DNA from: a virus
Taxonomy: Duplodnaviria; Caudoviricetes
DNA: 60,090 nucleotides
Virus record (IMG/VR): IMGVR_UViG_3300042486_000250
Span: 1 to 60,090 of that record
Strand: one strand, 5' to 3'
A model generated the notes under the pieces. The model did no database searches. It was given only the letters and a program-made list of their open reading frames with translations, and was not told the DNA's origin. Below are positions 41,030 through 60,090 of this stretch, one piece after another. The position numbers and the translations under genes are program-made. Within the stretch, counting starts at the first letter, position 1; each line of letters opens with the position of its first letter.

Positions 41030-41209
41030 GTGGCTGTTAAAAACTCTTTTGCTAATCAGGTTCGTATTGCCTTAATCGTTGCTAAGTCATTGCTTAAAAA
41101 AGCAACAGAGACTAATGAGATTTCACGAGAACAAAGTGAACTTGTGCAAGAGCATCTCAACTCTGCGTACACAATAATTAAACAAGTGTTGAGCAAGGAA
41201 ACCGATTGA
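41030..41209 (+). CDS. small hypothetical protein (59 aa, not in ORF track)
   Basis: GAGG then GTG; fills the gap and couples to next gene. Confidence 0.4.
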   Translation: MAVKNSFANQVRIALIVAKSLLKKATETNEISREQSELVQEHLNSAYTIIKQVLSKETD

Positions 41210-42642
41210 AAGTCTTTTTTGGTGGAGCCGAGAAGGGCTCTTACCGCTCCATCCTCTTAAGCGCAGGTGTTACCAGATTTGGTATCAACTTAACCCACTA
41301 CGCTGTTCCTAAGAAGAAACTGCTTGATCTTGCAACGGTGTATCAGGGGAACGACATCATCCTGTATGTCTCAGAGAATGATGAAGACTTGGCTCGCTAT
41401 GATTCATTTGTGCGTGAGCACATTGATAGTTTGACCTATGTGATTGGACGACCCGATTACGATGGCGCATGGATGGGTGAAAAATATGTACCTATCTGGA
41501 ATGACCCTGATGACTTAGAGCGTCTCCAATGGCTGTGTCAGAAGTATGGTCGTGTGGCTGTCAGTGATCGTGCCATCACAGGCAAAACCATCAACCGAAT
41601 TGGTCAGATCGCCACACGATGGTCAACCCAATTAATTGGTCTTACCTCTAAACCAGATGTCATTGAGAAGATCAACTGGGAGTCCGTTGTAGTCGTCTCA
41701 TGGTCTAGCGCACTGCGCTACGGAGAGACTCAGGTGTGGGATGGGCACGCACTGCACCGCTACCCCGCACAACAAAAAGAGAGCGCACGCAAGAGACACC
41801 GCAACGACATCCAGCGTCTTGGTGTGGACTACAACGCCGTCCTTGAAGATGAAGTAAACGCTGTGGCACACCTTGCTATCCAATCGTGGAGAGCATGGGA
41901 AACTAAAAACTTTGGGGGCTATGACCTTATGAATGTTGATGACGAAGAAGAGTTCACACTCACTGATGACAATCAAATCATAATGATTTCAGGGGATACC
42001 CCAAACCCCCAAAGTGTGGCACCGAGGGGTACAAACATTGTTCCACAGGTACCTAATAAGCGGCACGAAGGCAAAAGAACATTGCTCCCTGTTATGGGCA
42101 TTGACACCATCACATCAATGGGCTCACAAACCCTTGATAATGAAGGGGAATCTATTGAAGTAGACCCTGAACAAGTGTCTATTTTGAAGTACAACGCAGA
42201 CCCTTTGAGGCAGTGCAATCATTGTTACTTGGCAAGTCGTTGTCCACAATTTGAGGAAAATAGTGAGTGTGCGTTTTCTTTGCCCATTGAGATCCGCACA
42301 AAGGATCAGTTGAACTCTGCAATGCGTGCTTTGGTAGAGATGCAAGTGGGTCGTGTGATGTTCGCAAGGTTCGCTGAAGAACTAGAAGGTCAAGGTATTG
42401 ACACCACACTCTCCGTTGAGATGGATCGTGTCTTCACCATGATTGAGAAGTTAAAGAGCATCTCCGATACACGAGACACAGTGAGTTTTACGATGGAAGC
42501 AAAGGGCACCAGCGGTGTTCTTTCCCGTCTGTTCGGTGCCAAGGCAGGGGAGCAGGCACGCCAGTTGCCTAATGGTGGCTATGACGAGATTGCTACCAAC
42601 AACATGTACGCAGACATCATTGACATGTCTGAAGAAGGTTGA
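41206..42642 (+). CDS. large hypothetical protein with alpha/beta N-domain and Cys-cluster C-domain
   Basis: 478 aa; C-x2-C-x5-C-x8-C (CNHCYLASRCPQFEENSEC). Confidence 0.6.
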   Translation: MKVFFGGAEKGSYRSILLSAGVTRFGINLTHYAVPKKKLLDLATVYQGNDIILYVSENDEDLARYDSFVREHIDSLTYVIGRPDYDGAWMGEKYVPIWNDPDDLERLQWLCQKYGRVAVSDRAITGKTINRIGQIATRWSTQLIGLTSKPDVIEKINWESVVVVSWSSALRYGETQVWDGHALHRYPAQQKESARKRHRNDIQRLGVDYNAVLEDEVNAVAHLAIQSWRAWETKNFGGYDLMNVDDEEEFTLTDDNQIIMISGDTPNPQSVAPRGTNIVPQVPNKRHEGKRTLLPVMGIDTITSMGSQTLDNEGESIEVDPEQVSILKYNADPLRQCNHCYLASRCPQFEENSECAFSLPIEIRTKDQLNSAMRALVEMQVGRVMFARFAEELEGQGIDTTLSVEMDRVFTMIEKLKSISDTRDTVSFTMEAKGTSGVLSRLFGAKAGEQARQLPNGGYDEIATNNMYADIIDMSEEG

Positions 42643-45857: not shown

Positions 45858-46235
45858 CTACTCCACGCTGTCGGGGAATGGAAACTTGCGAGGACTGTTC
45901 GTAGAGACGAAGAAGTCAACACCACCCCACACACCGTTACGCATGTCGTTCTGCTTTGCAAAGTTAAAACACTCTTTACGAACGGTGCATTGAGAGCAGA
46001 GAGCCTGAGCCTGAGCCACCATCATCGCACGAGTGTTGTTGCGCTGTGCATTCTCGGTGAAGAAGATGGGAGTCATCTCAGACTGTCCCTTGCACTTGGC
46101 ATGATCCCTCCATCGTCCATCATCCTCAAACTTGAGGCTAGGAAGTTCAATGAAGTTGGTTGTGTCGTAATCCGTCAGGCGTACACGGCGGACGACAGGG
46201 GGCTTGACGCCCCCTGCCTCTGTAACCGCATCCAT
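45858..46235 (-). CDS. whiB: WhiB-family transcription factor
   Basis: WRDHAKC...IFF...AQALCSQCTVRKEC...GVWGG. Confidence 0.88.
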   Translation of the reverse strand: MDAVTEAGGVKPPVVRRVRLTDYDTTNFIELPSLKFEDDGRWRDHAKCKGQSEMTPIFFTENAQRNNTRAMMVAQAQALCSQCTVRKECFNFAKQNDMRNGVWGGVDFFVSTNSPRKFPFPDSVE

Positions 46236-47257
46236 CAGGCGAACACCAACTGCTTGATGGCGTCCAAGACCACACGGTCTTGCTCACCAGTCTTGCCAGT
46301 GATGCCGTTGAGCATGTTGCGCTCAACACGGGAGTTGTCAGCGCCTGCGTAGTGATGCTGGTAGGTGTTCCAGCACTGGAGGACTCCAAGCGCAGTGCCT
46401 CGCCAAGGAGAGACCATTGGGTCACTCTTGTAGAGTTGGTGCAGGAGTTCCTGCTTGTTCTCAGCACGAGCCTTGACCTGAGGACGGATGTCCAAGTCAG
46501 TTGACAGTGGCACGAGGCGCTCCACGATGGCTTTGAACTCGTTCTCGGTCACCTGCTGTGTGGAGAGGCGCTCAAGTTCAAGCATGATGTCGTCTGTGTA
46601 CTCATGGATGAGACCGAGAGCGTCACGGACTGTCTGCAACTTGCCGATGGAGTGCTTGCTGTGGCGCACCTTGTGCTTGGCTGTCTTCTCACCGAGGGCA
46701 CCAGCGAGCGTGTTGTCACACACGACCACAGTGGACACCAACTGGAAGGTTGATGACAGGGTGCCGTCATGGCTGGTGCAGGCAAGGAGGTGAGGACGGA
46801 TGTCAAAGCCTGATGGCGTCTTGATCGTCTCAGGCAATTCCACCTGAACATACGCCTTGCCACCTTGGCGAAGGAGACCAGCACCGCCGATGGCGAGGTC
46901 GTTGTCGTCAACGAGGTTTGCAACGGTGTCAAGGAGCCACTTCTTGTACTGGTGAACTTGGTAGGAGGACTTGAAGATGTTGAACACCGTGTTGTCATCC
47001 GAGCGGACGATTGCCTTGCGAGCCTTGTCTTCTTTGTAGTGGATGCCACCACCTGCTGGCATGCCTACGAACACTGGAGCCTCAATGGCTGTCCAGTTGA
47101 AGAGACGGCGGAGGACATCATCCACAGGAATCGCTCCCGTGTAGTGGTTGGGCTCGGCACCTTGTGACGATTCCTTGTAATGCCACGCATTACCTCGCTG
47201 TTCGCTGAATCCAACAAGGATGTTGGTGTTGAGCCATTCGGTAGTTTCTCTTGACAT
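46235..47257 (-). CDS. DUF932-family phage/plasmid protein
   Basis: AWH, LFNW, SHDGT, VVCDNT, RHS, GTA.G. Confidence 0.85.
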   Translation of the reverse strand: MSRETTEWLNTNILVGFSEQRGNAWHYKESSQGAEPNHYTGAIPVDDVLRRLFNWTAIEAPVFVGMPAGGGIHYKEDKARKAIVRSDDNTVFNIFKSSYQVHQYKKWLLDTVANLVDDNDLAIGGAGLLRQGGKAYVQVELPETIKTPSGFDIRPHLLACTSHDGTLSSTFQLVSTVVVCDNTLAGALGEKTAKHKVRHSKHSIGKLQTVRDALGLIHEYTDDIMLELERLSTQQVTENEFKAIVERLVPLSTDLDIRPQVKARAENKQELLHQLYKSDPMVSPWRGTALGVLQCWNTYQHHYAGADNSRVERNMLNGITGKTGEQDRVVLDAIKQLVFA

Positions 47258-47309
47258 GGTTGGTTACTTTCTGTGTTTTGTTGTTGTGGTTGTTAGTACC
47301 ACACGAATG

Positions 47310-47340
47310 AATCTATCCGTGTGGTTGTTGCTTTGGCAAC
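47310..47340 (-). promoter_or_regulatory. sigma70-type promoter TTGCCA-18-TAGATT
   Basis: Upstream of the DUF932 gene; resembles 33933-33962. Confidence 0.6.
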
Positions 47341-47543
47341 TAGGGTTGTTTCTTTTTTGTGGGCTCGTAGGTGGCGATAGCGACACCAGAGATCGCAAGG
47401 GCTCCTGAGACAATCAGGGTGATGGGCTGTCCATACAGGAAGATGTTCATGAACAACCCTATATAGATTCCCAGTGCGTACAGAGGGAAAGACAGGGGAA
47501 CCTGCACTCTCCTCTTGAACTTCTGTGGGTCAGTTACCCGCAT
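47340..47543 (-). CDS. small membrane protein
   Basis: Two hydrophobic segments; GGAGG RBS. Confidence 0.55.
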   Translation of the reverse strand: MRVTDPQKFKRRVQVPLSFPLYALGIYIGLFMNIFLYGQPITLIVSGALAISGVAIATYEPTKKKQP

Positions 47544-47830
47544 GTGTCCTCCATGTCATTGTCATTGATCCAGTCCACGAATGCGAACAGGTGCAAGGCG
47601 TCCACCACATTGATGGCACGAACTGATGTTTCATTGCGGAAAGTCACACCATTTGGTAGTTCAAGCATTGCGGAGGATTCGTTAGCAACGACCTTCTCAA
47701 TGGCTTCCACTGCCACGGGCACCATGTACTGAGGCACAGGTGGAAAGCAGTTGCTGGTCAAGTGCATGCTTACGGCGGTCTTCAAGTCCTTTGTGAACTC
47801 GTATGTGTCGTATGCGGTTAGGTATCCCAT
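47534..47830 (-). CDS. early-region hypothetical protein
   Basis: GGAGG RBS; HL..NCFPPVP motif. Confidence 0.65.
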   Translation of the reverse strand: MGYLTAYDTYEFTKDLKTAVSMHLTSNCFPPVPQYMVPVAVEAIEKVVANESSAMLELPNGVTFRNETSVRAINVVDALHLFAFVDWINDNDMEDTCG

Positions 47831-47840
47831 GTTGTCCTCC

Positions 47841-48074
47841 TTAAAGAACTGTCGTCTCTGGCGAGATGAGTTGTTGGTTGATTAATTGTTTGACGAGTGC
47901 CTCAACATTTGCTTGAGCATCAAGCACTGAGTAGGCGACCACTGGAATGGTCACTGTGATCAGGTGTTGGTCAAGGACATTTTGGGTGCCACACTTCTCG
48001 CAGACACCAAGCACATCAAAGTGGTTGTAGTCGGCTTCGCATGAACGGCACCAGAACGGTAGTTGGTTAATCAT
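47841..48074 (-). CDS. zinc-ribbon early protein
   Basis: CRSC...CEKCG; AAGGAG RBS. Confidence 0.6.
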   Translation of the reverse strand: MINQLPFWCRSCEADYNHFDVLGVCEKCGTQNVLDQHLITVTIPVVAYSVLDAQANVEALVKQLINQQLISPETTVL

Positions 48075-48084
48075 TTGTTTCTCC

Positions 48085-48327
48085 TTAGAGGTATTCGGCT
48101 TCATCAAGGCTGATGAATGTGATGTCTTTTTCTTCGGGGTCTTCATCAAAAAGTCCCCATGATGCAGTGTCCTCATCGGGCACTAGTTCAACGGTGACGC
48201 TTCCCTTGTGCTTACGAAAGGTCTCTTCAACCTTTGCGTATGCCATGTCCCACGCCTCGTCTTCGTCTATTGCATCGTCAATTTCAATGTCTGCATCCCA
48301 TGCAATTCTGAACTTGTAAATGGTCAT
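48085..48327 (-). CDS. small acidic early protein
   Basis: AAGGAG RBS. Confidence 0.6.
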   Translation of the reverse strand: MTIYKFRIAWDADIEIDDAIDEDEAWDMAYAKVEETFRKHKGSVTVELVPDEDTASWGLFDEDPEEKDITFISLDEAEYL

Positions 48328-48336
48328 TGTGTCTCC

Positions 48337-48888
48337 TTACGCCAATGAATCTTCTAGGTCATTGAGGGTATGTCCCTCTTCTGCTAACCACAACTTAAAT
48401 ACTTCTTCTGAGCCTTCGGGAACGAGGACGCTCACAGTCGTTGAGAAGAGGTTGGATGTTGGGTCAAGAACCAGCACCACGGTGCATGGTGGGATCAGGT
48501 CTTCGTTGACCAGTTGCGTTGACAGGTCATTGAATAACTGCTTACGGTCAGCGGTGGGGTCTCCCCATGCACCAGTCGTCCAGCCACTGAGGACATCGGT
48601 GTACCCGTCAATGGTGGTCTCGTAGTGCCCACGCCATGCATCACTGCTGATGTATTCACGCTTGATGTTGTCGTTGTGGTACTCGTCTCCGTACTGGTCA
48701 GTGCGGAAGGCATCTCCGATGAAGACCTGTTCTACACCAGAAGATGATACGAAGATGACCTTTGACGATCCGTCAATGTCTTCCCCGTAGCACTGGTAGC
48801 AGAAGTTGGCATCAACGATGTTGGAGAAGACACTGCCATCGTCAGTGTCAAACTCACCCTCGCATGCTTTGCAATTAAATGTTGTCAT
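48337..48888 (-). CDS. early protein with N-terminal CxxC pairs
   Basis: CKAC...CYQC; SDAWRGHY; AAGGAG RBS. Confidence 0.65.
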   Translation of the reverse strand: MTTFNCKACEGEFDTDDGSVFSNIVDANFCYQCYGEDIDGSSKVIFVSSSGVEQVFIGDAFRTDQYGDEYHNDNIKREYISSDAWRGHYETTIDGYTDVLSGWTTGAWGDPTADRKQLFNDLSTQLVNEDLIPPCTVVLVLDPTSNLFSTTVSVLVPEGSEEVFKLWLAEEGHTLNDLEDSLA

Positions 48889-49157
48889 TGTGTCTCCTTT
48901 ATTGGCTCAATCTCTTGAGTGTTGTTGATGTAGTAACCAAGGATGTTGGTTCCGTGTTTGATGTCCCACCATTGCTTGTGTGTTACCTCAAGCACGAGGA
49001 TGTCTTGAATGTCCTCGGTGTCACCAAGGCGCTCGTAGATGATTCGGTCGTGGTCATCAATCTCTTGTGGTGTGTCACCGATGATGAACATGACCACATC
49101 TTCACCACCACTTTCACTAGTCCATGTAACTGGGGCGAATGCTCCGATAGTTGTCAT
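48885..49157 (-). CDS. small acidic early protein
   Basis: GGAGG RBS, ATGA coupling. Confidence 0.6.
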   Translation of the reverse strand: MTTIGAFAPVTWTSESGGEDVVMFIIGDTPQEIDDHDRIIYERLGDTEDIQDILVLEVTHKQWWDIKHGTNILGYYINNTQEIEPIKETQ

Positions 49158-49546
49158 TGTATGACCTCCTCAATGTCTGTTGTGTTCCATGTTTCTTGTG
49201 TGTCTACACACACTGATTGATTGCTTTCAAATAAACGCTCTGCTTCTTCTAAAGACCCAGCGGTTACTTCGTGCAGGTGGTGAAACACTTGCTCGTAGGT
49301 GATCGTGTACTTCTTAGGTGCTGATGTTGTACGGAGGACAGCGTCCTCAAATGGTCGCACCCAGTCAAGGTCAATGGACTGGATGGTTACGATCCTCTCA
49401 TCGGTCAGTCGGAATGTCTCGGCGCCAGTGTCATCGTCACTGTCCAAGAACACTCCACCGTCCAGTTCCTCGTAGGTGTACTGGTCGTTGGTGTTGGCAT
49501 CGGAGATGAGTTGACCATCTTCGTAGTTGCGGATAATTGTTGTCAT
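49154..49546 (-). CDS. acidic early protein
   Basis: GGAG RBS. Confidence 0.6.
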   Translation of the reverse strand: MTTIIRNYEDGQLISDANTNDQYTYEELDGGVFLDSDDDTGAETFRLTDERIVTIQSIDLDWVRPFEDAVLRTTSAPKKYTITYEQVFHHLHEVTAGSLEEAERLFESNQSVCVDTQETWNTTDIEEVIQ

Positions 49547-49770
49547 TAGTTGTTCTCCTGTATGGCGGTGTGGTTGATAATGATGTCATCCACAATGGTG
49601 CTGTTACTTACTGCACCTTGTGGAAGGGTCTCTGGTAGGACATGTGCACTGATATCAGTGGTGGTGTCCTTGATGCTCTCCAAAATCTGCTGGAGTGTCC
49701 AGTCGCTAGGAAAGGACATGTCAAAGGTGACCGAGATGGACACACTCTGAACGAACTTGATGTTTTTCAT
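49546..49770 (-). CDS. early hypothetical protein
   Basis: TAATG coupling on both sides. Confidence 0.55.
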   Translation of the reverse strand: MKNIKFVQSVSISVTFDMSFPSDWTLQQILESIKDTTTDISAHVLPETLPQGAVSNSTIVDDIIINHTAIQENN

Positions 49771-50087
49771 TAGTTGTTCTCTTCTTCTTCTTCTTCTGTG
49801 TAGGTCTCTACTTGTACTTGAATGGGTCGTGCCCATGGGTACTCGGTCACGAAGTAACCAATGCGGTTGACAAGGTGGTAACCACTGACGATGGCTGTGC
49901 CCTCATCAGTGTCTACCCATGTCCATACGAGGTTCTCAGGCTGTGAGAGGACGAACGCAATGTCGTCTCCGTATGTCTCAAACAGGGTGCCGTTCCAGCC
50001 TTGGTCACCACTGATGTGGTTCTCAAGGGGCATGTACAGGCTCTCCCAAATGTCTACTTCTACTTCATGGATTGATGTGTTGCTCAT
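49770..50087 (-). CDS. early hypothetical protein
   Basis: FETYG, VWT.VD, G.HLVNRIGYFVT; AAGGAG RBS. Confidence 0.65.
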   Translation of the reverse strand: MSNTSIHEVEVDIWESLYMPLENHISGDQGWNGTLFETYGDDIAFVLSQPENLVWTWVDTDEGTAIVSGYHLVNRIGYFVTEYPWARPIQVQVETYTEEEEEENN

Positions 50088-50120
50088 AATGAACTCCTTG
50101 GTTGTGGTGGTGGTTGCTAT

Positions 50121-50208
50121 GGGCTGTGCCCTCAGAGTGCATGGAGAAACAAAGGAGATAAGAACTCCATGCACCCTGAGCGCACCAGCGGTGTATTGTC
50201 ACCGCTGA
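50121..50208 (-). promoter_or_regulatory. three-helix intergenic RNA element, copy 6
   Basis: H1 tcagcggtg/caccgctgg; H2 gtgcgctcagggtgcatggag/ctccatgcactctgagggcac; H3 gggc-aca-gccc. Confidence 0.75.
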
Positions 50209-50221
50209 AGCGCCCTCTGTC

Positions 50222-50422
50222 TTACTTATAGGCGTTTGAGTAAGACGAGATCTCTTGTTCACGCTCATGCCGTTTGGCAATCGCTACTGCTATGTCAAGA
50301 CGAGTGCTGTCAGAGGCATCGTTGATGTCTCTCCAGTCTTCGTCAGTCCAGTTCTCGGTGTTGACCACGAGGATGTCTGTTGCATCCCCGTAGTCACCGT
50401 CCACACTAAAGAAATGTTCCAT
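50222..50422 (-). CDS. small acidic early protein
   Basis: GAGGAG RBS. Confidence 0.6.
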   Translation of the reverse strand: MEHFFSVDGDYGDATDILVVNTENWTDEDWRDINDASDSTRLDIAVAIAKRHEREQEISSYSNAYK

Positions 50423-50874
50423 CAGAATGGCTCCTCATCTGCGTTGATGACAGGCACACCAATGACCTCGTTCACTGCGTTGCCGACTGCCATCCAGTCC
50501 ACATCGTTGCAGTCACTCAGTGATTGCCAGTCCGCTGTGCGGTACACAGCGTCCCATTCTTCATCAGTGAGACGGCGGTTGGCATCACGCTCGGCATCCT
50601 CACGACACCATGTGACACCAGTGAACTTGAAGTGGTCACGGATGGAGGAGATAAGCGCACGACCGATTTCCTGACCCTCTTCAGTGTTGGGGTCAATGCC
50701 TGTGAAGATCTTGTTGACCTCGTCCAGTCCGTGGTAGGTGATGCTCCAGTCATCAGCGACAGCCTCGTTGATGTCCAAGATGAATGGTCGTAAGACCTCC
50801 TCAAGGATGGGTGTAGGTGATTGGTCTGTTGGGTGCTCAATGTTGATAATGAGCGTTGCGTTTGATGTTTCCAT
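50422..50874 (-). CDS. acidic early protein
   Basis: 150 aa, AAGGA RBS. Confidence 0.6.
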   Translation of the reverse strand: METSNATLIINIEHPTDQSPTPILEEVLRPFILDINEAVADDWSITYHGLDEVNKIFTGIDPNTEEGQEIGRALISSIRDHFKFTGVTWCREDAERDANRRLTDEEWDAVYRTADWQSLSDCNDVDWMAVGNAVNEVIGVPVINADEEPF

Positions 50875-50886
50875 GATGGTTGTTCC

Positions 50887-51168
50887 TTAAATGAAGAGAT
50901 ATTCAAAATCACTGTCAATGATTATTTCAATTTCGCCGTCAACAGAAAAGCCTTCAAAGCCCTTGTTGACTGCATCGTGTAGTTGGTCGGTTTCTACCTT
51001 GTTGAGGTAGTAGAAGACATTGGTGTCAAGGTCATACCAAGGGTTGTTGGTGTCATCAGTGATGACTGGGTCATCACCGAATGCAATGATGACTGCCATC
51101 TCTTGACCACCGAAGGTGATATTGCACTGGCAACCGATGGGTTGTTCGGGTTGTTCGTATGGGTTCAT
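50887..51168 (-). CDS. acidic early protein
   Basis: AAGGA RBS; starts MNPYEQPEQP. Confidence 0.6.
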   Translation of the reverse strand: MNPYEQPEQPIGCQCNITFGGQEMAVIIAFGDDPVITDDTNNPWYDLDTNVFYYLNKVETDQLHDAVNKGFEGFSVDGEIEIIIDSDFEYLFI

Positions 51169-51178
51169 GATGTGTCCT

Positions 51179-51376
51179 TTACTTGTTGTAATTAGTTGTT
51201 GTGCTCTCAATGAGCGTTGCCTTGTCCACGCAGTAGCGGTCACCTGAGAAGTCCTGCACTACGACTGCATCACACTTTGCGTGGTAGTCCACGGTGTTTG
51301 CCACAAGCACTCCCCCAAGGGCGAGAGCGACTCCTATTAGCAGGTAGATGATGTTGATTAATGTTTCTTGTTTCAT
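51179..51376 (-). CDS. small membrane-anchored early protein
   Basis: N-terminal TM helix; AAGGAG RBS. Confidence 0.6.
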   Translation of the reverse strand: MKQETLINIIYLLIGVALALGGVLVANTVDYHAKCDAVVVQDFSGDRYCVDKATLIESTTTNYNK

Positions 51377-51699
51377 TGGTTGGCTCCTTCAGTTATGCGC
51401 TTCCACCCTATGTGGTTGCAGTAGTACGACCTGCCGTTGATAGTGACCTCGTCACCCACCGACATTGCCGTGTGTGTTCTGTTCTCAGGGAGTACTGGCT
51501 CCAGCACTCTCCAGAATGAACCTTTGTAGAGGTTGGTGTCCCGCCACACTTTGTCCAGCAAGTCAGTGTCATTGAGGATGTTGCCCTCGCTGTGGACATT
51601 CGCAAAGTCGTAAGAGACGGTCACCGATGTGATCTTCTTCCCGAACCCAAGCGCATCCTTGAATGCTTTCCATGTGACTGTGACTTCGTATGTGCTCAT
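51373..51699 (-). CDS. early protein, YodL-like C-terminus
   Basis: HTAMSVGDEV....YYC...GW. Confidence 0.55.
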   Translation of the reverse strand: MSTYEVTVTWKAFKDALGFGKKITSVTVSYDFANVHSEGNILNDTDLLDKVWRDTNLYKGSFWRVLEPVLPENRTHTAMSVGDEVTINGRSYYCNHIGWKRITEGANQ

Positions 51700-51899
51700 T
51701 GATTGTTCTCCTTTTGTTCTAGTTCTGCGAGTGCTCGCTCTGCGTTGTTTGCGTTGATGATGTGTCGTGCCGATGCTTCGTAATCGTTCTGAGTGACAGC
51801 CACCTTTGAGAATCCCTCGTTCCACTTCATGTAGAGAATCAAGGACTCAATGATGGTGTCCATTGCTTGTTTGCTGAGTTGTTCTACACGGTCAGTCAT
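51696..51899 (-). CDS. small helical early protein
   Basis: 67 aa, coupled. Confidence 0.55.
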   Translation of the reverse strand: MTDRVEQLSKQAMDTIIESLILYMKWNEGFSKVAVTQNDYEASARHIINANNAERALAELEQKENNQ

Positions 51900-52312
51900 T
51901 ACTTGCCTTCCTTTTCGTATCCGTCAAACCAGTCGTCACTGTGTGTGTCATCACGCTTGCAGTGCTCCTTTGCGTCCTGCAAGGTAAGTCCAGTCAGGAT
52001 GACCTTGTTGGCACGGCTGATGTCCTTGTAGAACCGCACAACCTTGTAGGTATCGGTGTCCACTGGGATGGCTACTTCGTAGTCATAGGAGGGGTCACCG
52101 TTGACCACTGGGTATGCAAAGCACCTCCACTTGTTGTTGTCTTCATCTCGGATGAAGTTGAGGTCAACACGGTCTCCGTATGAGTGGAAGACATCATCGT
52201 CTTCAAAGTAGTTCTCATTGAGGAACTGCTGAGCAAACTCAGCGATGGCATCAATGTTCTGTTGGATGTATGCGAGCGTGACTTGGAAGTCACTGACGGT
52301 TGGTGTGTTCAT
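51899..52312 (-). CDS. early hypothetical protein
   Basis: AAGGAG RBS; YKVVRFY...GLTL..A..HC...WFDGY module. Confidence 0.6.
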   Translation of the reverse strand: MNTPTVSDFQVTLAYIQQNIDAIAEFAQQFLNENYFEDDDVFHSYGDRVDLNFIRDEDNNKWRCFAYPVVNGDPSYDYEVAIPVDTDTYKVVRFYKDISRANKVILTGLTLQDAKEHCKRDDTHSDDWFDGYEKEGK

Positions 52313-52338
52313 TATTTGTTCTCCTTGTTGGTTGCTTT

Positions 52339-52417
52339 GGACTGCGTCCCATGAGCACTGCGAGGTGTCCCGACCCCACAGTGCTCGTGGCACGCCACGG
52401 GGTTGCCCCCGTGACGC
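52339..52417 (-). promoter_or_regulatory. three-helix intergenic RNA element, copy 5
   Basis: H1 gcgtcacgggg/ccccgtggcgt; H2 gcgtgccacgagcactgtg/cgcagtgctcatgggacgc; H3 ggac-gca-gtcc. Confidence 0.75.
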
Positions 52418-52442
52418 CCTACCTGAGCACCACCCCAGTTTG

Positions 52443-53981
52443 TTAGCCGACCCAGTCAGCGAGCAATGAGGCGACTAGCGAACCAGCCTCCACATTGAGG
52501 TCTTCAGCGTTGCCATCAAGCACCGCCGAGAGAACCTCCTGCTTCGCATTGAGCAGGTTGAAAAGTCGGTCGTCAATGGTCAACTCACCATCGGTACGAG
52601 CACCAGTGAGGTGCCAGCAAGTGACAGATTCTGTCTGTCCAAAACGATGGCATCGGTCAGTGGCTTGCTGTAATTCAGCAGGTGTCCACGGTAACTCCAC
52701 GCTCACCCACTGGTTGGCACGAGTGAGCGTGAGACCGACACCAGCGGAGGTGTAGTTGCCCACGAACACGCTCGCACGACCCGACTGGAAGTCGTCCACT
52801 GCTTGTTGCTTGTCAGCATCACTCATGCCACCGAGGACACTCACGACATTCCATCGTGGGTCTTCAACAGCACGGCGCTCGCACTCTTCAATGAGAGCGG
52901 TGAGCACTGCACGGTGGTGACCGAAGACGACCACTGGCTGGTCACCCTCAATGATGGACTCAAGATGCTCAATGGCGTGCTTGACCTTGACCTTTGCAAT
53001 CTCCTGTCGCAGGGCTGACAACTGTGTGATGGTCTCAGCACGAGACACACGAAGCACAGCCTCACGACCACCCTTGCCGTACACCCAAGCGAGGAAGTCT
53101 TCCTCAATGCGGAGGTAGTCACGCAACTCAGTCTTGCTGAGAGCGATAGCAACCTGAGCACTGCGCTTGGCTGGCAACTCGGTGAGCACATCAGCCTTCT
53201 TACGGCGGATGTAGCAGGTGCCACGCAACTTCTCATGCAACTCTGCGCTGTTGGTTGAACCATTGAATGTCCAGCCGAACGCATTCTTGATGGGGTCGCA
53301 GTAGCGCCACTTGAATGAACCAGCAGAGCCGAACACAGGGTTCAACTGACCGATCGTGTCAAGCAGTGGCACCAACTCCACAGGACGGTTGACCGCTGGC
53401 GTGCCTGAGGCGAGCACCACATACCCTTCGGCAGGGATGCCACGAGCGATGCCCTGCAATGCGATGGTGCGCTTTGCCTTACCGTTCTTGAAGCGGTGTG
53501 CCTCGTCTACCAGCAGGGCACCGAAGCCCTCCTTGTTGAGAGCCTGAGCCCAGCCAGCGATGGATGCGTCACCGATGATGGTGACCTGAGCGCCGTTGCA
53601 CTGGGTAGCACGGGTGCCCTCAAGAATCTCAACGGTCAGTGCATTGTTGGTGAACTTGTCAATCTCACGCTTCCACTGGAGGCGCAGTGACGGTGGCACG
53701 CTGATGAGGACACGGAGACCCTGCTCAACAGCCTTGAGAGCCACGGCAATGAGTTGTGGTGTCTTGCCCAAGCCCATCTCGTCACCGAGGATGACACGGC
53801 GTTGCTTGAGGGCATACGCCACGCCAGCACGCTGGTACGGGAGCAGTGGAAGGGCAAGGTCAAAGTCAAGGTCAAAGTCATGCGCTCCTGAAAGCGCAGA
53901 CAACTCAGGGCACACATCAATGGGTGATGCAGTGCGGACAGCGGACGCCAGTAAGGCGTCCAATTCGGAACGGTGGGACAT
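52443..53981 (-). CDS. SNF2/HARP-like helicase (second copy, early region)
   Basis: LGDEMGLGKT, VDEAH, SGTPAVNRP, AGVGLTLT, QATDRCHRFGQ. Confidence 0.9.
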   Translation of the reverse strand: MSHRSELDALLASAVRTASPIDVCPELSALSGAHDFDLDFDLALPLLPYQRAGVAYALKQRRVILGDEMGLGKTPQLIAVALKAVEQGLRVLISVPPSLRLQWKREIDKFTNNALTVEILEGTRATQCNGAQVTIIGDASIAGWAQALNKEGFGALLVDEAHRFKNGKAKRTIALQGIARGIPAEGYVVLASGTPAVNRPVELVPLLDTIGQLNPVFGSAGSFKWRYCDPIKNAFGWTFNGSTNSAELHEKLRGTCYIRRKKADVLTELPAKRSAQVAIALSKTELRDYLRIEEDFLAWVYGKGGREAVLRVSRAETITQLSALRQEIAKVKVKHAIEHLESIIEGDQPVVVFGHHRAVLTALIEECERRAVEDPRWNVVSVLGGMSDADKQQAVDDFQSGRASVFVGNYTSAGVGLTLTRANQWVSVELPWTPAELQQATDRCHRFGQTESVTCWHLTGARTDGELTIDDRLFNLLNAKQEVLSAVLDGNAEDLNVEAGSLVASLLADWVG

Positions 53982-54012
53982 GGATTACTCCTTGGTTATG
54001 TTGGTGCTCGGT

Positions 54013-54090
54013 GAGCGATGCTATCGCTCTCACTACCTATTCACACTTTATGAATAGGCACTGAGAGCGCCACCGCCGAAGCGGTGACAC
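54013..54090 (-). promoter_or_regulatory. three-helix intergenic RNA element, copy 4
   Basis: H1 gtgtcaccgc-TTCG-gcggtggcgc; H2 cgctctcagtgcctattca/tgaataggtagtgagagcg; H3 gagcgat-agc-atcgctc. Confidence 0.78.
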
Positions 54091-54107
54091 CCCACTGTGT
54101 TCATTTG

Positions 54108-54776
54108 TTACTTCTTGGCGCACTCAGAGCCGAGACCACGGGCACGAGATGCTTCATCGGTGAGGTGACGACCACACTTACCGCACACACCAAGTTCACG
54201 CCCGTAGCGAGCCTGCGCCTCGGTCAGTTCGTCAGTTGATAGTGAGACCAGCGCCTCAACAATCCGCTTGGTCTCGGCATCACTCACACGGAATGGTGCC
54301 TGTCCACCGAGGACTCGTAGCACCTCCTTCTTGCCGTTCTTGAGGTGAACGAAGAAGAAGTCAAGGTCGTTGTTACCAGTGAGCGATGGGATGGCGTAGT
54401 AGCCACGGTCAACCGTCTCAAGAGCATCAGCCTCGTAGAGGCAGTCACCCTTGGCGTGGTATGTGCGCCAGCCGTAATTCGCCTGCACAGCGAAGCCAGC
54501 ACCAGTGTCAACCTCACGGTTGCACAAGGCGCACTCCTTGGCGAACTTGTTGACGATGACACGACCCTCAGGCAAGTGAGCATGCTCAGGGTTACGGGGC
54601 GCAGGGATGGACTTCAACTTGTCAATGATTTCGCTCGCAGACTTTGCGGTCAACTTGTTGATGCCCTTCTCTTCTATGTACTTGTCAATGTCGTCAATGC
54701 CGAGCACCGAGAGGCGCTCCTGCAATAACGAACGGACGAATGACTGTTGCTTGGGGGTGATGGTGGTGGCTGACAT
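54108..54776 (-). CDS. DUF6011-like zinc-binding protein
   Basis: ITPKQ N-terminus; CGKCGRHLTDEASRARGLGSEC. Confidence 0.7.
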   Translation of the reverse strand: MSATTITPKQQSFVRSLLQERLSVLGIDDIDKYIEEKGINKLTAKSASEIIDKLKSIPAPRNPEHAHLPEGRVIVNKFAKECALCNREVDTGAGFAVQANYGWRTYHAKGDCLYEADALETVDRGYYAIPSLTGNNDLDFFFVHLKNGKKEVLRVLGGQAPFRVSDAETKRIVEALVSLSTDELTEAQARYGRELGVCGKCGRHLTDEASRARGLGSECAKK

Positions 54777-54800
54777 TTTGTTCTCCTTTACTAGAACGGG

Positions 54801-55103
54801 TTATTGGTTGAGGTATTGGTAGGCGTACTCGTCAGGGTCGTTCTCACGCAGGTACTCCTCGTACCTTTGCTCGTCCTCCATTAACTGGCGCTCGGTTGCT
54901 AGTTCGTCACGGTAGACACAGCCAGCGCATGTGGCACGCTCGCAGTCCTCGTCAAACACCCAAAAGGGTACGAAGGGTGACTGCTTATTTCCGATCAATT
55001 CTGAGCACTGTGAGCAGGTGCTGGGGAACTCAATGTCTGAGTTCTCCAACACATCGGACTCACTCACGAGCCATGGCTGGATGGGCTGTTCGTATGGGTT
55101 CAC
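54801..55103 (-). CDS. zinc-finger-like acidic early protein
   Basis: GGAGG then GTG; CSQC...CAGC; starts MNPYEQPIQP. Confidence 0.55.
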   Translation of the reverse strand: MNPYEQPIQPWLVSESDVLENSDIEFPSTCSQCSELIGNKQSPFVPFWVFDEDCERATCAGCVYRDELATERQLMEDEQRYEEYLRENDPDEYAYQYLNQ

Positions 55104-55327
55104 TTGACCTCCTCGGTTGTCGTGCTGGGGCGCCACACATCCTTGTCCGTGTCGTCACCGACATAGAGGGCACTCCATGCACCCTCACGGGACTGGAGGT
55201 TGTAATACTCCTCCACATAGAGGGCATTGTGAAGTAGTGATTCGGCAACAATGCTCTCTGCTTCTTGCTGTGTCTCGGCTTCAACGATGGCACGCACGGT
55301 GACATCAATGCTGTATTTCTTGCTCAT
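55100..55327 (-). CDS. small early protein (VEAET.EEA-type)
   Basis: AGGAG RBS. Confidence 0.6.
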   Translation of the reverse strand: MSKKYSIDVTVRAIVEAETQQEAESIVAESLLHNALYVEEYYNLQSREGAWSALYVGDDTDKDVWRPSTTTEEVK

Positions 55328-55357
55328 TGGGTTCTCCTGTTGTTGTTGTTGGTTGTC

Positions 55358-55690
55358 TCAGCCGTACACGAGTTCGTTGAAGAATGCGTACTGCCAAATT
55401 GCATCGTGGTCAGTGTGGTCGGTACCGCACTCCTTGAGGTCGTCCCAGTCACCACCGTTTTGAATCCACAGTGCGATGCCCCTGAGGCAGGACTCCGTGT
55501 CAAAGTTGTAGCGGTAACCGTTGTTGATGAGGTATGTCTCACCCTCAATGTCGGTGTGCACTTCGTACTCGTCATCAGCCACCCAGTAGCGACAGCCGTC
55601 AGAGGACTTGATGTAGTCAATGACCTCATCGCTCACCATGAGGGTGTACGAGATGGTCAGTGGGTGGCGTGTGTTGGTTGCTGTGCTCAT
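55358..55690 (-). CDS. acidic early protein
   Basis: YW...D...Q...F.EL.YG; AAGGAG RBS. Confidence 0.65.
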   Translation of the reverse strand: MSTATNTRHPLTISYTLMVSDEVIDYIKSSDGCRYWVADDEYEVHTDIEGETYLINNGYRYNFDTESCLRGIALWIQNGGDWDDLKECGTDHTDHDAIWQYAFFNELVYG

Positions 55691-55974
55691 TTGTTGTTCT
55701 CCTTGTTGATGGTTTCAATTTGTTTGATGGTGAGTTGGTTGTCCATGTCAATGATGGAGTAACGAATCTTCCATCCTTGCTTCTCAATGTGACGCATGCG
55801 CTTGTCCATGGCGTCAACGCTCACGGAGTTACCGAAGCGTTTCCATGGCTCACTCGCATCCTTGCGCCAGTACGAGACGACACGCTTCGCATGGCGCCCC
55901 GTGGTCACACCCTTGAACGGCTGTAGGACGCCGTCAGGGTCAGTGAAGGTCGGGTATGTCTCAAGTGTTGTCAT
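55687..55974 (-). CDS. early hypothetical protein
   Basis: AAGGAGG RBS. Confidence 0.6.
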   Translation of the reverse strand: MTTLETYPTFTDPDGVLQPFKGVTTGRHAKRVVSYWRKDASEPWKRFGNSVSVDAMDKRMRHIEKQGWKIRYSIIDMDNQLTIKQIETINKENNK

Positions 55975-55984
55975 TGGCGCCTCC

Positions 55985-56530
55985 TTAAGCGTTGACTTCT
56001 GATGGTTGCAATTTGTTGATGACCGCCTCAAGCAGGAGGTTCATCCAGTACTTGTCACTGAAGTGATGTGGCTTGACCTCAAAGGACTCACCAAGGAATG
56101 CGCTGAGGGTTGACACCTTGCGCTCCAGTTCGTTGTGCTCTGCCAACTGGCGCTGAATGAGGCGCTCAGTCTTCAGCAACTCGTACTGGAGGAAGTTGTC
56201 CATGGTCAGCGGTACAGCCTTGCCCAACTCATCGTCATAGCGATGCACAGGGTTCGCAATCTGACTGGGCAAGAACGACTCGGTGTAGGTGCTATCCACG
56301 ATGCGGTCAGGCTGTGCTGGGATCAATTCGCCTTCATAACCAGTGCGCTCGTCCTGAGCCTTCTTGAAGAAGACACGGACAACGGTCACCGTCTTCAGGG
56401 TCTTGCGCTGTGAGCCGTAGGTACGGCGCTCACCGAATCCAGTGATGCGGTAGTAACCGTTGTGGTTGTTGACCTCAAACAGCGTGTTCGGGTCATTCGC
56501 TACAGCGAGGGTGATGTCTAGAAGTTTCAT
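55985..56530 (-). CDS. early hypothetical protein
   Basis: 181 aa, AAGGAG RBS. Confidence 0.6.
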   Translation of the reverse strand: MKLLDITLAVANDPNTLFEVNNHNGYYRITGFGERRTYGSQRKTLKTVTVVRVFFKKAQDERTGYEGELIPAQPDRIVDSTYTESFLPSQIANPVHRYDDELGKAVPLTMDNFLQYELLKTERLIQRQLAEHNELERKVSTLSAFLGESFEVKPHHFSDKYWMNLLLEAVINKLQPSEVNA

Positions 56531-56550
56531 TGGTGCTCCTTGTTGATAGT

Positions 56551-56628
56551 GGGCGATTGCCCTCAGAAGACACCGACCGAAGCCAGTGTCCTCTGAGGAC
56601 ACCACAGGCTGGGGGAGCCTGTGATGCC
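56551..56628 (-). promoter_or_regulatory. three-helix intergenic RNA element, copy 3
   Basis: H1 ggcatcacaggct/agcctgtggtgtc; H2 tgtcctcagaggacactggc-TTCG-gtcggtgtcttctgagggca; H3 gggc-aatc-gccc. Confidence 0.8.
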
Positions 56629-56639
56629 TTGGGGGTCAG

Positions 56640-56810
56640 TTACAGATGCACAGTGATGGCTCGGTCAACCTCCCCGATTTCCCAGTGGTGGTTGTTCGTC
56701 TCTTCAGGGTCAAAGTCACCAGCGATGGCGATTGCCTCCTCCTGTGACTCAGCCTCCACCACTGCGGTGTATGTCTGCCCGATGATTACTTGAACTTCGT
56801 ATTTTGCCAT
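56640..56810 (-). CDS. small early protein (VEAES.EEA-type)
   Basis: MAKYEVQV...VVEAESQEEAIAIA; AAGGAGG RBS. Confidence 0.6.
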   Translation of the reverse strand: MAKYEVQVIIGQTYTAVVEAESQEEAIAIAGDFDPEETNNHHWEIGEVDRAITVHL

Positions 56811-56823
56811 TGTGTGTGCCTCC

Positions 56824-57177
56824 TTAGGCGTTGGTTGATTTTGGTGAGCAGGAACCGTCAGCGCATGAGTCGCAGACCACAGCGTGGTCGTACACCTCAA
56901 AGTATTTGTCGCTCTCGTAGATGTCGTAACCCTTCTGACGAAGTCGGTGTGCGACCTCGGTGTAGTCGGGGTCACCCTCGTCCTCGTCAACGAGCAAGTC
57001 CAGCAGGTGGACGCCCGTCTCCTGACCGAAGTAGATGAGGACTCGGTTGTGCCACTTGTAGCGAGCAGGTTGCTCGTGAGGCATCTCGTCCTCAAAGTCA
57101 GCGCAGAGAATCCAGTCGGACACTTCAGGCTGAACCTCGTGGTAGTTGCCATTTCGGTAGATGCGCTCAATGCTCAT
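56824..57177 (-). CDS. acidic early protein
   Basis: ATGA coupling; 117 aa. Confidence 0.6.
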   Translation of the reverse strand: MSIERIYRNGNYHEVQPEVSDWILCADFEDEMPHEQPARYKWHNRVLIYFGQETGVHLLDLLVDEDEGDPDYTEVAHRLRQKGYDIYESDKYFEVYDHAVVCDSCADGSCSPKSTNA

Positions 57178-57443
57178 TGGGTTACTTCTTTCTTGTTGTT
57201 GATTGCTGTGAGCCACTCGGTCTCGGTCACTGTCTGACCGTTCACGATGTAAAAGGCGTTGGTGACTTGACCGTCAATGACAGGCGCCAGTTGGTAGACA
57301 TGGGCGTTGTTCTCTTCCTCCATGTGCTGGGCAATCCATTGCTCGGCAAGGAATGCGTTGTCATGGTAGGTAGTGACTTGTGCTGTGCAGTCACCCTTGC
57401 GGATGCCAGCCACTCTGACTCGTGTTTCTGTTGGTGTTTCCAT
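57174..57443 (-). CDS. early hypothetical protein
   Basis: AAGGAG RBS; 89 aa. Confidence 0.6.
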   Translation of the reverse strand: METPTETRVRVAGIRKGDCTAQVTTYHDNAFLAEQWIAQHMEEENNAHVYQLAPVIDGQVTNAFYIVNGQTVTETEWLTAINNKKEVTQ

Positions 57444-57462
57444 TGTTGTTCTCCTTGGTTGT

Positions 57463-58005
57463 TCAGAATGGGTAGAGGTCATCGTTGACCCAGTAGCGGT
57501 TGTTCGGAATCTGTGGCTGAGCGTTGCTGTCGCCACGCTGACGCAGTCGCATCGTGACGCAGGCGTCCACCAGTTCTCGGTATGCCTGCTCAGTGGTCGG
57601 TACGAATGGAATCTCTTGGCGATACTCAAGGTCTCCAGCATTCAGCAACCACAGTGGCAACTCCAAACGACCATTGTGTTCTGCCCAGTGCCACAAGGCA
57701 TCCCAGCCCTGCGATGAGCCGATTGGCATCTCGCCACCCTTGTTGTCACCGTCACACCAGTTCGCACTGTCACCGACCCACACTGACAAGCCCCTGCCCT
57801 TCTTGTCGGTCACAAGAATCGGCAACGCAGTGCCTGCCCACTTGCGGTCAATGTTGGCGTCAAGGCGAGCGCAGTACTTCTCAAACTTCTCGCTCGGTGA
57901 CCATGAGTACTTGTATCGGAACTCAACGACACCGATGTCACCGAAGACATCGGACAGTCCCTTGATTCTCTTGGTCTTCGTAATTGCGTATTGGTAAACG
58001 CCCAT
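57463..58005 (-). CDS. early hypothetical protein
   Basis: 180 aa; AAGGAG RBS. Confidence 0.6.
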   Translation of the reverse strand: MGVYQYAITKTKRIKGLSDVFGDIGVVEFRYKYSWSPSEKFEKYCARLDANIDRKWAGTALPILVTDKKGRGLSVWVGDSANWCDGDNKGGEMPIGSSQGWDALWHWAEHNGRLELPLWLLNAGDLEYRQEIPFVPTTEQAYRELVDACVTMRLRQRGDSNAQPQIPNNRYWVNDDLYPF

Positions 58006-58024
58006 TGTGATTCTCCTTTGTTGT

Positions 58025-58098
58025 GGACAATGTCCTCACCATGCACCGACCGAAGCCGATGCACAGTGAGGACACCAGCGCCGTGAGGCGCTGATGCC
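58025..58098 (-). promoter_or_regulatory. three-helix intergenic RNA element, copy 2
   Basis: H1 ggcatcagcgcc/ggcgctggtgtc; H2 tgtcctcactgtgcatcggc-TTCG-gtcggtgcatggtgaggaca; H3 ggac-att-gtcc. Confidence 0.8.
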
Positions 58099-58121
58099 GT
58101 TTTGATCAATTTGTGTGTGTG

Positions 58122-58583
58122 TTACGAAGCGAGGTAGTCAACCTCGTACTTCGCAAGGTGGCGCTTGATGGTTGCCGTTGACCATTCGGTCATACCAGCA
58201 ACAGGCTCAGCATTCTCACGCTTTACAAGACGCAAGAAGTACTGCACCCAACTGGTATCGGACTCATCGGACACATTGACTCGCAAGCCCATCGCACTCT
58301 TGATGTGCTCAGGGCTGAGTCGTTCTTCAATGACCTTTTCGCCATCCCACACTCGTGAGAATGAACCGCCGACCATCGCTTCAAGGTAAAGCGACAGGCG
58401 AGCGAACACCTTGTGGGCGTTCTTCTCAGAGATGCGACCCTGCTGGACAATCATCATGCTGAACATGAGGTCACCAATAGGGAAGCGTGGGTAGCCGTTG
58501 GAGTCAGTGAAGTCGCCATCAGGTGTGGTGGCGAGGAACTCTTTATAAACGGGGGTGTTTCCCCAGTCAACATTAAGTGCCAT
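58122..58583 (-). CDS. first protein-coding gene of the early operon (hypothetical)
   Basis: AAAGGAG RBS before ATG 58583; 153 aa. Confidence 0.65.
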   Translation of the reverse strand: MALNVDWGNTPVYKEFLATTPDGDFTDSNGYPRFPIGDLMFSMMIVQQGRISEKNAHKVFARLSLYLEAMVGGSFSRVWDGEKVIEERLSPEHIKSAMGLRVNVSDESDTSWVQYFLRLVKRENAEPVAGMTEWSTATIKRHLAKYEVDYLAS

Positions 58584-58605
58584 TGTGTGGTGCTCCTTTG
58601 GTAGA

Positions 58606-58778
58606 GGGAACGGATTGTCCGTCCCCAGCACCCATCAAACGAGTTGTTGCCAGACTCTGGCGTTCAATTACTTGCCTCCCAAGTGATGCGCCAGTTACTG
58701 GCAACAACTCTCATGGGGGAGGCTTCCATGCTGATGAATGCTGGGCACGGAGCCGAGGGGCTTATGCCCCCCGACACC
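58606..58778 (-). promoter_or_regulatory. three-helix intergenic RNA element, copy 1 (expanded H2 with branched apex)
   Basis: H1 ggtgtcggggggc/gcccctcggctcc; H2 tccgtgcccagcattcatcag/ttgatgggtgctggggacgga enclosing a 13-bp gagttgttgccag helix; H3 gggacgga-caa-tccgttcc. Confidence 0.7.
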
Positions 58779-58779
58779 G

Positions 58780-59642
58780 TTGCATGACCTGACCGCATCA
58801 CCATGTGGGGGCTTTCCAATGACTTAGAGCCACAGCCAGCGCAAGCACTGACTGTTTTATCCCGATGATGCGGTATGCGAATCGTTTCCCCGTCATGGGT
58901 GAAGTTTGGCGCCAAACACTTTCGGTGTTTCAGTAACGCCAATTCATCTGTGTAGGTCACAGTGTTGCCACTGTCCGTTGGTAGTTAGTCCATAAAGCGA
59001 CAATGTGTCGCACCGCTGAAGCCATCGCACCCTCGCACTCGTAACTGATTCGCCTACACCATTGCCTGTCCTGCAAAGGCTCCTTGGAGCAAGTGACCCA
59101 CTAAGGGGTCAACGACCCACTATGGGGTCAACACAATGCAGTGTCAGCGTTGGACTGGGCGTCAGTGGGTCATCTCGCAGTATCCGCACCATGTCGCCCG
59201 TAATCTCCGCACCGTGAGGTGAGAAGAATGCGAGCGCCAAATAGGTATGTGAGGACTTACGAGAGCCGAACGAATGCCAAATGAATCTTCTGATTCGCAT
59301 ATCTCTTGTAGATAGTTCGCCCAACTTCTTACTAACTCATGTCCAGCAGGAAAGGCTTCGCAGGCTTGCGCCTCCACCATTCCTGCCTGTGCGCTTGGCG
59401 CATCTGAGTGTCTCCCAGCGAATGCGAGCCATGGGCTCTGCTGAGGAAGAACATCTTCGGAACTATCTGAAATTGTCAAGGGACGAACTGGATTCCATGA
59501 ACCGTGGAGGCAACTGAATCTGAACTGCAATGCCCAAGGACTTAGGGCAGGACAGGAACAGGGCGCTATGGGAGTGGGCAAAGCCCAGCCATCAAGAACA
59601 CGGCGGAATCTTCAGTTGGAAAAGAGCGCCCCGAAGGGCACA
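58780..59642 (-). ncRNA. candidate large structured non-coding RNA / giant 5' leader
   Basis: No ORF with this operon's RBS signature; many hairpins; long-range helices 59065-59074/59547-59556, 59310-59318/59460-59468, 58792-58800/58866-58874. Confidence 0.65.
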
Positions 59643-59647
59643 GCAAA

Positions 59648-59703
59648 AGTCTCCCACAAGGGGGGGGTGGTGTGTCAATAGTTTTCAAACAATTTTTCTG
59701 ATT
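59648..59703 (-). promoter_or_regulatory. probable early promoter: AT-rich UP element, TTGACA, weak extended -10 (TGgGAGACT)
   Basis: TTGACA at 59678-59673 after AAAAATTGTTTGAAAACTA; the -10 is non-consensus with a 19-nt spacer. Confidence 0.45.
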
Positions 59704-60090
59704 TCTTTTGAGCCATATGTGGCAAGGGTCTGAGGGACAGAGGGCGCTGGAAAGGGCGCCCAAACCGTTCCTACGGGCTCTGAATGCCATGGAGGGAGAC
59801 AGGGAAGGGAGGGGGGGGGAGAGGGGCTGAGAGGGGCTCTGAGGTGGCAATGGGGGGAGTGTGGGTGATGTGGCTGGAATAGGTCAATTTTGATCAATTG
59901 TTGAGTGATTGCTGGGGAAATGGGAAACATTGGTCAGTGGGGTGGGGTGGGGTCATGTGAAGTTGCCCCCCTCGCCCTCTCGTGTGTGCCCCCGATTCCA
60001 TAGCCCCAGCCGTAGTGCATGACCATGCAGTCATTTATGCATAAAAAGTGATCAATTTTGGTGATTTCCCTTACGCCACAAGGGTTTCCG

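Follow-up and report, generated by a model that had tools for sequence, protein, structure and literature searches.

The virus contig analysed here, the 60,090-base IMG/VR record IMGVR_UViG_3300042486_000250 (hereafter the window), carries six copies of a three-hairpin RNA element between the gene blocks of one minus-strand operon, which runs from 60,000 to approximately 46,200 and comprises small genes and the gene for a 512-amino-acid SNF2-type helicase. These elements form a new structured-RNA family, uncatalogued in Rfam, of uncultured lake-water phages. They lie on the sense strand of the operon, share three helices (H1, H2 and H3), hold the central helix H2 at a conserved length, with a base complementary to two partners, and mark the borders between gene cassettes that have been shuffled. 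Their probable role is to punctuate the operon mRNA for processing or stability.

A three-hairpin RNA family of lake-water phages

The six gaps, labelled A to F (Table 1), follow a single order on the minus (sense) strand: H1 (8–15 bp), H2 abutting H1, H3 abutting H2, an A/C-rich stretch, AAGGAG and a start codon. A first-pass annotation of the sequence had described this layout, with a long H2 and a short H3, in all six gaps, and both folding and covariance models confirm it; the positions under which it entered the gaps (50121, 52339, 54013, 56551, 58025 and 58606) are the exact 3' ends of H3. Compared with dinucleotide shuffles, the gaps reach z values of −5.4 to −6.7, none of 200 shuffles being as stable in any gap. 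In the family, predicted stabilities range from −12.5 to −24.3 kcal/mol for H1 and from −26.9 to −44.8 kcal/mol for H2 in its extended form (see below). The finer sequence features recorded in that annotation hold as well: CUCA/UGAG opens H2 in four copies (A, C, D and E, being absent from B and F), UUCG loops recur in H1 of C and in H2 of D and E, and U-tracts are lacking, with no terminator-like site carrying a T-run on the minus strand of the six gaps.

The same annotation had suggested building a covariance model and searching viral databases and Rfam, where a match to a described family would remove novelty. To avoid circularity, a first model was built solely from site B and its three orthologues and was run over the 60 kb on both strands with filters off; its next four minus-strand matches were D (E-value 3.8e-6), A (1.1e-4), E (1.7e-3) and C (0.25). 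With a second model, built from 16 copies, A to E were recovered in the window on the minus strand only, with E-values from 3.8e-15 to 1.3e-11; the best unrelated match had an E-value of 0.087. Element F scores 13.5 bits with this model (E-value 0.32) and shows the same plan by folding.

Relatives were collected by helicase-anchored searches in IMG/VR and metagenomes. At E ≤ 1e-3, the second model gave 117 matches, found in 22 out of 22 loci whose helicase is 48–79% identical to that of the window, and none in 56 loci with a helicase at ≤44% identity. All 117 matches are on the helicase-sense strand. Copies lie only between the gene blocks of one operon, and four genomes rated at least 99% complete (94–97 kb) contain 4–8 copies each, all within one stretch of 6–8 kb and on one strand. 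BRock and GiJojo yielded neither a match to the model nor a first-look candidate, an empty answer of limited weight. An exact-pattern scan of viral contigs returned 61 loci, which is about the chance expectation; among the 59 of these that were searched, real copies were present only in locus L144, and the remaining two are contigs already counted among the known relatives. Rfam 15 gave no match at gathering scores for the whole window and none at E ≤ 1 for 50000–58900, and a description of the motif was not found in the open-access literature. Self-cleaving ribozymes and tRNA-like punctuation were also considered and rejected, given the lack of an Rfam match, the absence of tRNA genes according to ARAGORN (0 genes) and helices that abut with only 0–3 unpaired bases.

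Conserved pairing, the shared base of H2 and cassette borders

Pairing was counted over 104 matches, representing 87 distinct copies. In an alignment fitted to the model, which favours pairing, 98.1% of H2 and 88.5% of H1 positions are paired across the 87 copies, in agreement with the earlier remark that pairing is kept while sequences differ, and 31 of the 32 pairs show changes on both sides. When the partners are slid by 1–3 columns, pairing falls to 31–46%, and the observed values were reached in none of 500 shuffles. An independent MAFFT alignment of 16 copies gave 91% pairing with double changes in 26 out of 32 pairs, and eight copies from genome G004, outside the model-building set, fit equally well. 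Across four phages, site B orthologues keep the H2 helix although its sequence is almost unrelated from one to the next; the orthologues of element C in L005 and L009 retain all three helices via compensatory changes. Selection thus acts on structure rather than on sequence. Among the 40 listed of 320 single-letter population differences, obtained from DNA contigs, two fall within elements. The modelled pairs include 121 G·U against 15 A·C cells, and folding is more stable on the sense than on the antisense strand in 24 out of 24 copies (mean −53.5 versus −37.7 kcal/mol, a difference of approximately 16 kcal/mol); because of this excess of G·U and the greater stability of the sense fold, the structure belongs to the sense-strand transcript.

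The relation between the three helices can be described with four segments. H1 begins, at its 5' end, with seg1; seg2 comprises the four nucleotides immediately 5' of the H2 core and seg3 the four immediately 3' of it, seg3 serving also as the 5' arm of H3, whose 3' arm is seg4. The first-pass annotation had pointed out that the base of H2 is shared, and this extends to the 87 copies: seg2 can pair either with seg1, within H1, or with seg3, as an extension of H2, and seg3 doubles as the H3 5' arm. The four seg2–seg3 pairs can form in 87, 87, 82 and 64 of the 87 copies and the four seg2–seg1 pairs in 85, 87, 74 and 37. At the first shared position, the three bases are A-U-A in 49 copies and G-C-G in 34, with four discordant. 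One alternative is a series of three consecutive hairpins, the other a three-way junction that seg1–seg4 pairing closes; when each was forced, they differed by ≤1.5 kcal/mol in 16 out of 24 copies, and each was favoured in 12. An H3 of at least 4 bp beginning at the last H2 base occurs in 86 of the 87 copies, compared with 17.6% of shuffled tails, and the H3 5' arms comprise five different sequences, each with its own matching 3' arm.

In the predicted folds, extended H2 measures 19–23 bp in 23 out of 24 copies (median 20) with a loop of 3–18 nt. Its stem has no unpaired base in 11 of the 24 copies and 2–4 unpaired bases in the other 13. Irregularities occur near the middle of the helix, base pair 11 of extended H2 being G·U in 53 of the 87 copies and base pair 9 unpaired in 10. 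Between H3 and the ribosome site lies an unstructured spacer (median 16 nt; 40% A, 29% C and 10% G). Promoter cassettes and terminators were rejected as explanations of the gaps, which contain no sigma-70-like promoter and no T-run terminator; a sigma-70-type scan of 46000–60090 found five promoter-like sites, none of them in a gap. An intrinsic (Rho-independent) terminator was dismissed likewise, on the absence of any minus-strand terminator-like site from the six gaps and the A- and C-rich composition of the sequence after H3.

Two features had gone unremarked in the first-pass annotation: most copies begin 5–9 nt beyond the stop codon of the gene before them, and the elements coincide with places where gene content changes. 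Relative to the related genome G001, blastn blocks break in the spacer after E and in that after D, and element A is missing as a unit together with the two genes before it, the blocks skipping 50863–50087. In contigs from other sequencing runs, genes are replaced or deleted. Three of the joints (52316, 56536 and 58606) lie in the spacer that directly follows an element, others adjoin or fall inside elements (54091/54106, 58118/58125 and 58744), and still others are located at plain gene borders (50879–51174, 55313–55324 and 55956–57174). In gene-order maps of five phages, only a core of gene, element, helicase and element is kept, and the rest is shuffled.

Proposed processing of the operon mRNA and competing explanations

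A structure formed by the sense RNA, a central helix of two turns with mid-helix irregularities, flanking hairpins that can take over its base, the lack of a terminator tail and an open ribosome site downstream together fit a processing and stability signal. That the elements punctuate the mRNA in this wider sense is, as said, probable; the narrower model, in which they are cutting targets of the host's RNase III, is one that we hold tentatively. Substrates of the Escherichia coli enzyme typically span two helical turns, require no fewer than 11 bp from the cut to the tetraloop, and can also be formed by coaxially stacked helices (PMC1540722); the predicted extended H2 has the length of approximately two turns that this rule describes. 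In the proposed mechanism, these cis-acting elements would divide the polycistronic mRNA of the operon into gene blocks. The fully paired H2 (19–23 bp) would be recognized by the double-strand-specific host RNase III, and a cut in its middle would leave a lower stem of approximately 9–10 bp. The four bases on each side of this stem could then find new partners, completing H1 on one side and forming H3 on the other, and with the outer four pairs lost in this way some five pairs would remain, so that the halves might separate. A stable 3' hairpin would then terminate the upstream RNA, while the downstream RNA would start with a small 5' hairpin, followed by an A/C-rich leader free of structure and by a strong ribosome binding site. 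Self-capping cleavage of this kind had been suggested in the first-pass annotation, and the analysis supports that suggestion in part, namely in its anatomy of three sense-strand helices with a contested H2 base.

Several points weigh against cleavage by RNase III. The identity of the nuclease, its cut and any consequence for stability are what we infer. A phage-encoded RNase III was rejected as a candidate, the domain being present in none of the three phage records searched (the control was positive in 8 out of 14 genomes), and a host enzyme must therefore be assumed; the length rule applied to H2 derives from the E. coli enzyme. A central cut would, on this model, leave approximately five unpaired bases before H3, giving a 5' 'cap' that is not flush. 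In a tree of the elements, which is weakly supported, the key column changes state about five times, with one independent contrast on supported branches; with so few independent changes, the three-way covariation is therefore to be read as consistent conservation, and we make no claim of significance for it. Finally, RNase III alone does not explain the strongly conserved sequence of the outer part of H1, where C-G is present in 86, A-U in 84 and a U·G wobble in 79 of the 87 copies, and which could be a protein site.

This last feature would suit a different role, namely that the outer H1, which is where primary sequence is most conserved, is read by a protein of the phage or its host, for example one acting in antitermination, translational regulation, packaging or defence. 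Since 7 out of the 10 operon proteins scanned have no Pfam match, there is room for an RNA-binding protein among them, but no RNA-binding domain was detected in the ten and Rfam offers no match even at E ≤ 1. To our knowledge, antitermination RNAs act once per promoter and not 4–8 times per operon, and we regard such a binding site as very improbable. Uncleaved structural insulators deserve more credit, while still being rather unlikely: here, the hairpin stack would block exonucleases from both sides and keep the gap folded, so that the blocks decay and are translated independently with no endonuclease involved, in the way that repetitive extragenic palindromes act within the operons of bacteria. 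The evidence on structure, strand and placement fits this proposal equally well, as do the high stabilities of H1 and extended H2 and the G-poor, unstructured leader after H3. What it leaves unexplained is why H2 is held at 19–23 bp while its loops vary, and why the H2 base is complementary to two partners when a single stable hairpin would suffice.

The distance from the preceding gene bears on a translation-coupled switch, in which a terminating ribosome would cover seg1 and thereby impose the extended-H2 fold, linking the downstream block to upstream translation in the manner of a four-segment attenuator. An upstream stop codon is assignable in 68 of the 87 copies; its distance to the first paired base has a median of 7 nt and a mode of 5–6 nt and is ≤9 nt in 43 out of 68, and the conserved arrangement of 1:2 and 3:4 against 2:3 pairing, with two folds close in energy, would suit a switch too. 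Yet the gap is 11–78 nt in the other 25 copies, no stop can be assigned in 19 of the 87, and a short gap may merely mirror compact packing. Moreover, with no T-run after H3 and a ribosome site at a median of 16 nt beyond it in open sequence, neither termination nor masking is evident, and we judge the switch improbable. Very improbable, in our view, are terminators or attenuators made of hairpin clusters without U-tracts, which would step down transcription, and DNA-level homology patches for cassette exchange. Hairpin clusters have been proposed as terminators (PMC8355165), but the elements have no T-run, and six successive partial stops would leave the distal genes short of transcripts; purified mycobacterial RNA polymerase requires a U-tract (PMC3993855), which weighs against termination. 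Homology patches would account for cassette gains, losses and swaps that end at the elements, as at the promoter-early stem-loop (PeSL) cassettes of T4-type phages (PMC2839356). A purely DNA-level role, however, does not explain the 121 G·U pairs, the strand asymmetry of 16 kcal/mol or the compensatory changes, and exchange there can result simply from the elements being repeated. Cleavage might also be combined with ribosome-driven refolding: a bistable module placed 5–9 nt after stop codons would be flipped by terminating ribosomes and then cut in its double strand, coupling the processing of a block to translation of the preceding one, with each product keeping an end hairpin, and the module would also be a portable cassette border that preserves expression signals. 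We consider this combination unlikely.

Genomic setting and comparison with known systems

Table 1. Coordinates of the six three-hairpin elements in the window, listed in operon order (minus strand; helices given from 5' to 3' of the transcript).
Element	Span	H1	H2 core	Extended H2	H3	E-value, second model	Fold z	Remarks
F	58606–58779	58775–58752 (outer pairs to 58779/58748)	H2 base 58744–58626		58626–58606	0.32		First in operon; 91-nt branched insert at 58730–58640
E	58025–58098	58098–58071	58070–58035	58074–58031	58035–58025	4.3e-14	−6.7	
D	56551–56628	56628–56598	56597–56562	56601–56558	56562–56551	3.8e-15	−5.7	
C	54013–54091	54091–54066	54065–54029	54069–54025	54029–54013 (7 bp)	1.3e-11		Upstream of helicase gene
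B	52339–52418	52418–52391	52390–52349	52394–52345	52349–52339	1.9e-12		Downstream of helicase gene
A	50121–50212	50212–50181	50180–50131 (18-nt loop)	50184–50127	50131–50121	6.4e-12		Last copy in operon

Element F is an expanded member, with an H1 of 10 bp, a 14-bp H2 base interrupted by the insert in the H2 tip and an H3 of 7 bp; its full fold has a z of −7.8. The counterpart at the same position in G001 (42342–42417) is an ordinary short member (E-value 8.5e-7). The insert itself (58640–58730, minus) folds into a long hairpin that is almost perfect and bears a side branch; it is absent from that counterpart. Coding sequence was rejected as an explanation here, the 98-codon frame at 58664–58960 that overlaps F not being conserved in G001. 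Variation of another kind occurs in the G004-type phages (L165; for example, 2128–2206, 4165–4247 and 5884–5969), where H1 is preceded in many copies by an additional hairpin, which extends into the end of the gene before it, and where the ribosome site is located within a small conserved hairpin.

The window is rated 64% complete, and its plus strand encodes tail sheath, baseplate, major head protein and DNA polymerase. The major head (capsid) protein is 60% identical to those of Streptomyces phages of the BRock type, whereas the helicase has no relative above 36% identity in cultured phages and none above 38% in bacterial genomes; an actinobacterial host is, on these sequence comparisons, only a lead, and the 'early' status of the operon is an assumption. 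The region is covered by contigs from four runs labelled lake water, freshwater or metagenome, and the phage is listed in 24 sequencing runs, all of them DNA. Among the ten operon proteins scanned with Pfam, those outside the seven without a match resemble DUF6011, DUF932 and, below its cut-off, one further family. The DUF932 protein (E-value 1.1e-36) is encoded by the last large gene of the operon (46235–47257, minus). On the plus strand, a 478-amino-acid protein (41206–42642) matches a phage family annotated as queuine tRNA-ribosyltransferase (E-value 7.9e-36), which may indicate that the DNA of the phage carries 7-deazaguanine modifications.

Upstream of element F, two tandem 16-bp palindromes, 3 bases apart (59095–59129, minus; two matches in none of 100 shuffles), overlap a promoter-like site at 59147–59119, in a stretch that is 80% conserved in G001. 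Lying approximately 320 nt upstream of F, they look like an operator-promoter pair for the operon. Near the start of the operon stand three copies of a 9-base motif with a GATC palindrome, always on the minus strand (58103–58111, 59891–59899 and 60049–60057), with one copy just before element E; the chance expectation is 0.85, and three copies were reached in 4 out of 100 shuffles. A long C/T-rich run of low complexity is found upstream of the operon (59790–59850, minus).

The elements add to the catalogue of structured RNAs a well-supported family outside Rfam with 87 distinct copies and near-complete compensatory pairing, drawn from abundant uncultured lake phages. They also suggest how a phage may manage a long operon whose small genes are interchangeable: a self-contained RNA signal brackets each block and probably sets the ends and the stability of its message. 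If the alternative pairing works as proposed, the element would be a compact natural cistron insulator comparable to synthetic RNase III or Csy4 designs, and it would provide an instance, open to testing, in which the refolding of an RNA drives the release of its cleavage products.

Parallels exist with several described systems. In trp-type attenuators, four segments pair either 1:2 and 3:4 or 2:3, and the phage elements resemble them in this logic and in their position just after a translated frame; they differ in that regulatory codons are lacking and 3:4 is not followed by a terminator tail, and in being repeated between genes instead of standing once in a leader. The PeSL cassettes of T4-type phages combine a strong sigma-70-like early promoter with a terminator stem-loop, and they too are repeated short motifs that border small, mostly unknown genes in a variable region, with gains, losses and swaps of genes ending at them (PMC2839356). 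The phage elements share the position at cassette borders, but the adjacent promoter is absent, the sigma-70 scan having found no promoter-like site in the gaps, as is a T-run; what is conserved instead is an RNA structure that compensatory changes maintain.

Repetitive extragenic palindromes and bacterial interspersed mosaic elements (REP/BIME) are repeated intergenic hairpins within bacterial transcription units and can stabilize upstream mRNA. The elements described here are likewise repeated intergenic hairpins within a transcription unit; unlike REP/BIME, which are host-chromosomal, shorter and present in both orientations, they are phage-borne, sense in 117 out of 117 cases and built of three helices on a fixed plan. 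A further likeness is to the RNase III signals of the T7 early genes and to those reported in the Bacillus phages SP82 and SPO1, two-turn hairpins between cistrons whose cutting is said to leave a protective 3' hairpin on the upstream RNA. As at those sites, hairpins of approximately two turns stand between the cistrons of a phage operon, several per operon and with no terminator tail. The differences are that there is no sequence or Rfam relation and that cleavage is here a prediction, that the long helix is mostly fully paired, without the internal loop that limits cutting to one strand in sites of the T7 R1.1 type, and that H2 is flanked, with no spacer, by two hairpins that compete for its base. 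The kind of signal, hairpin punctuation of a phage operon as in T7, is already known; neither Rfam nor the open-access literature searched contains the family, its three-helix plan, the dual pairing of the H2 base or the link to cassette borders.

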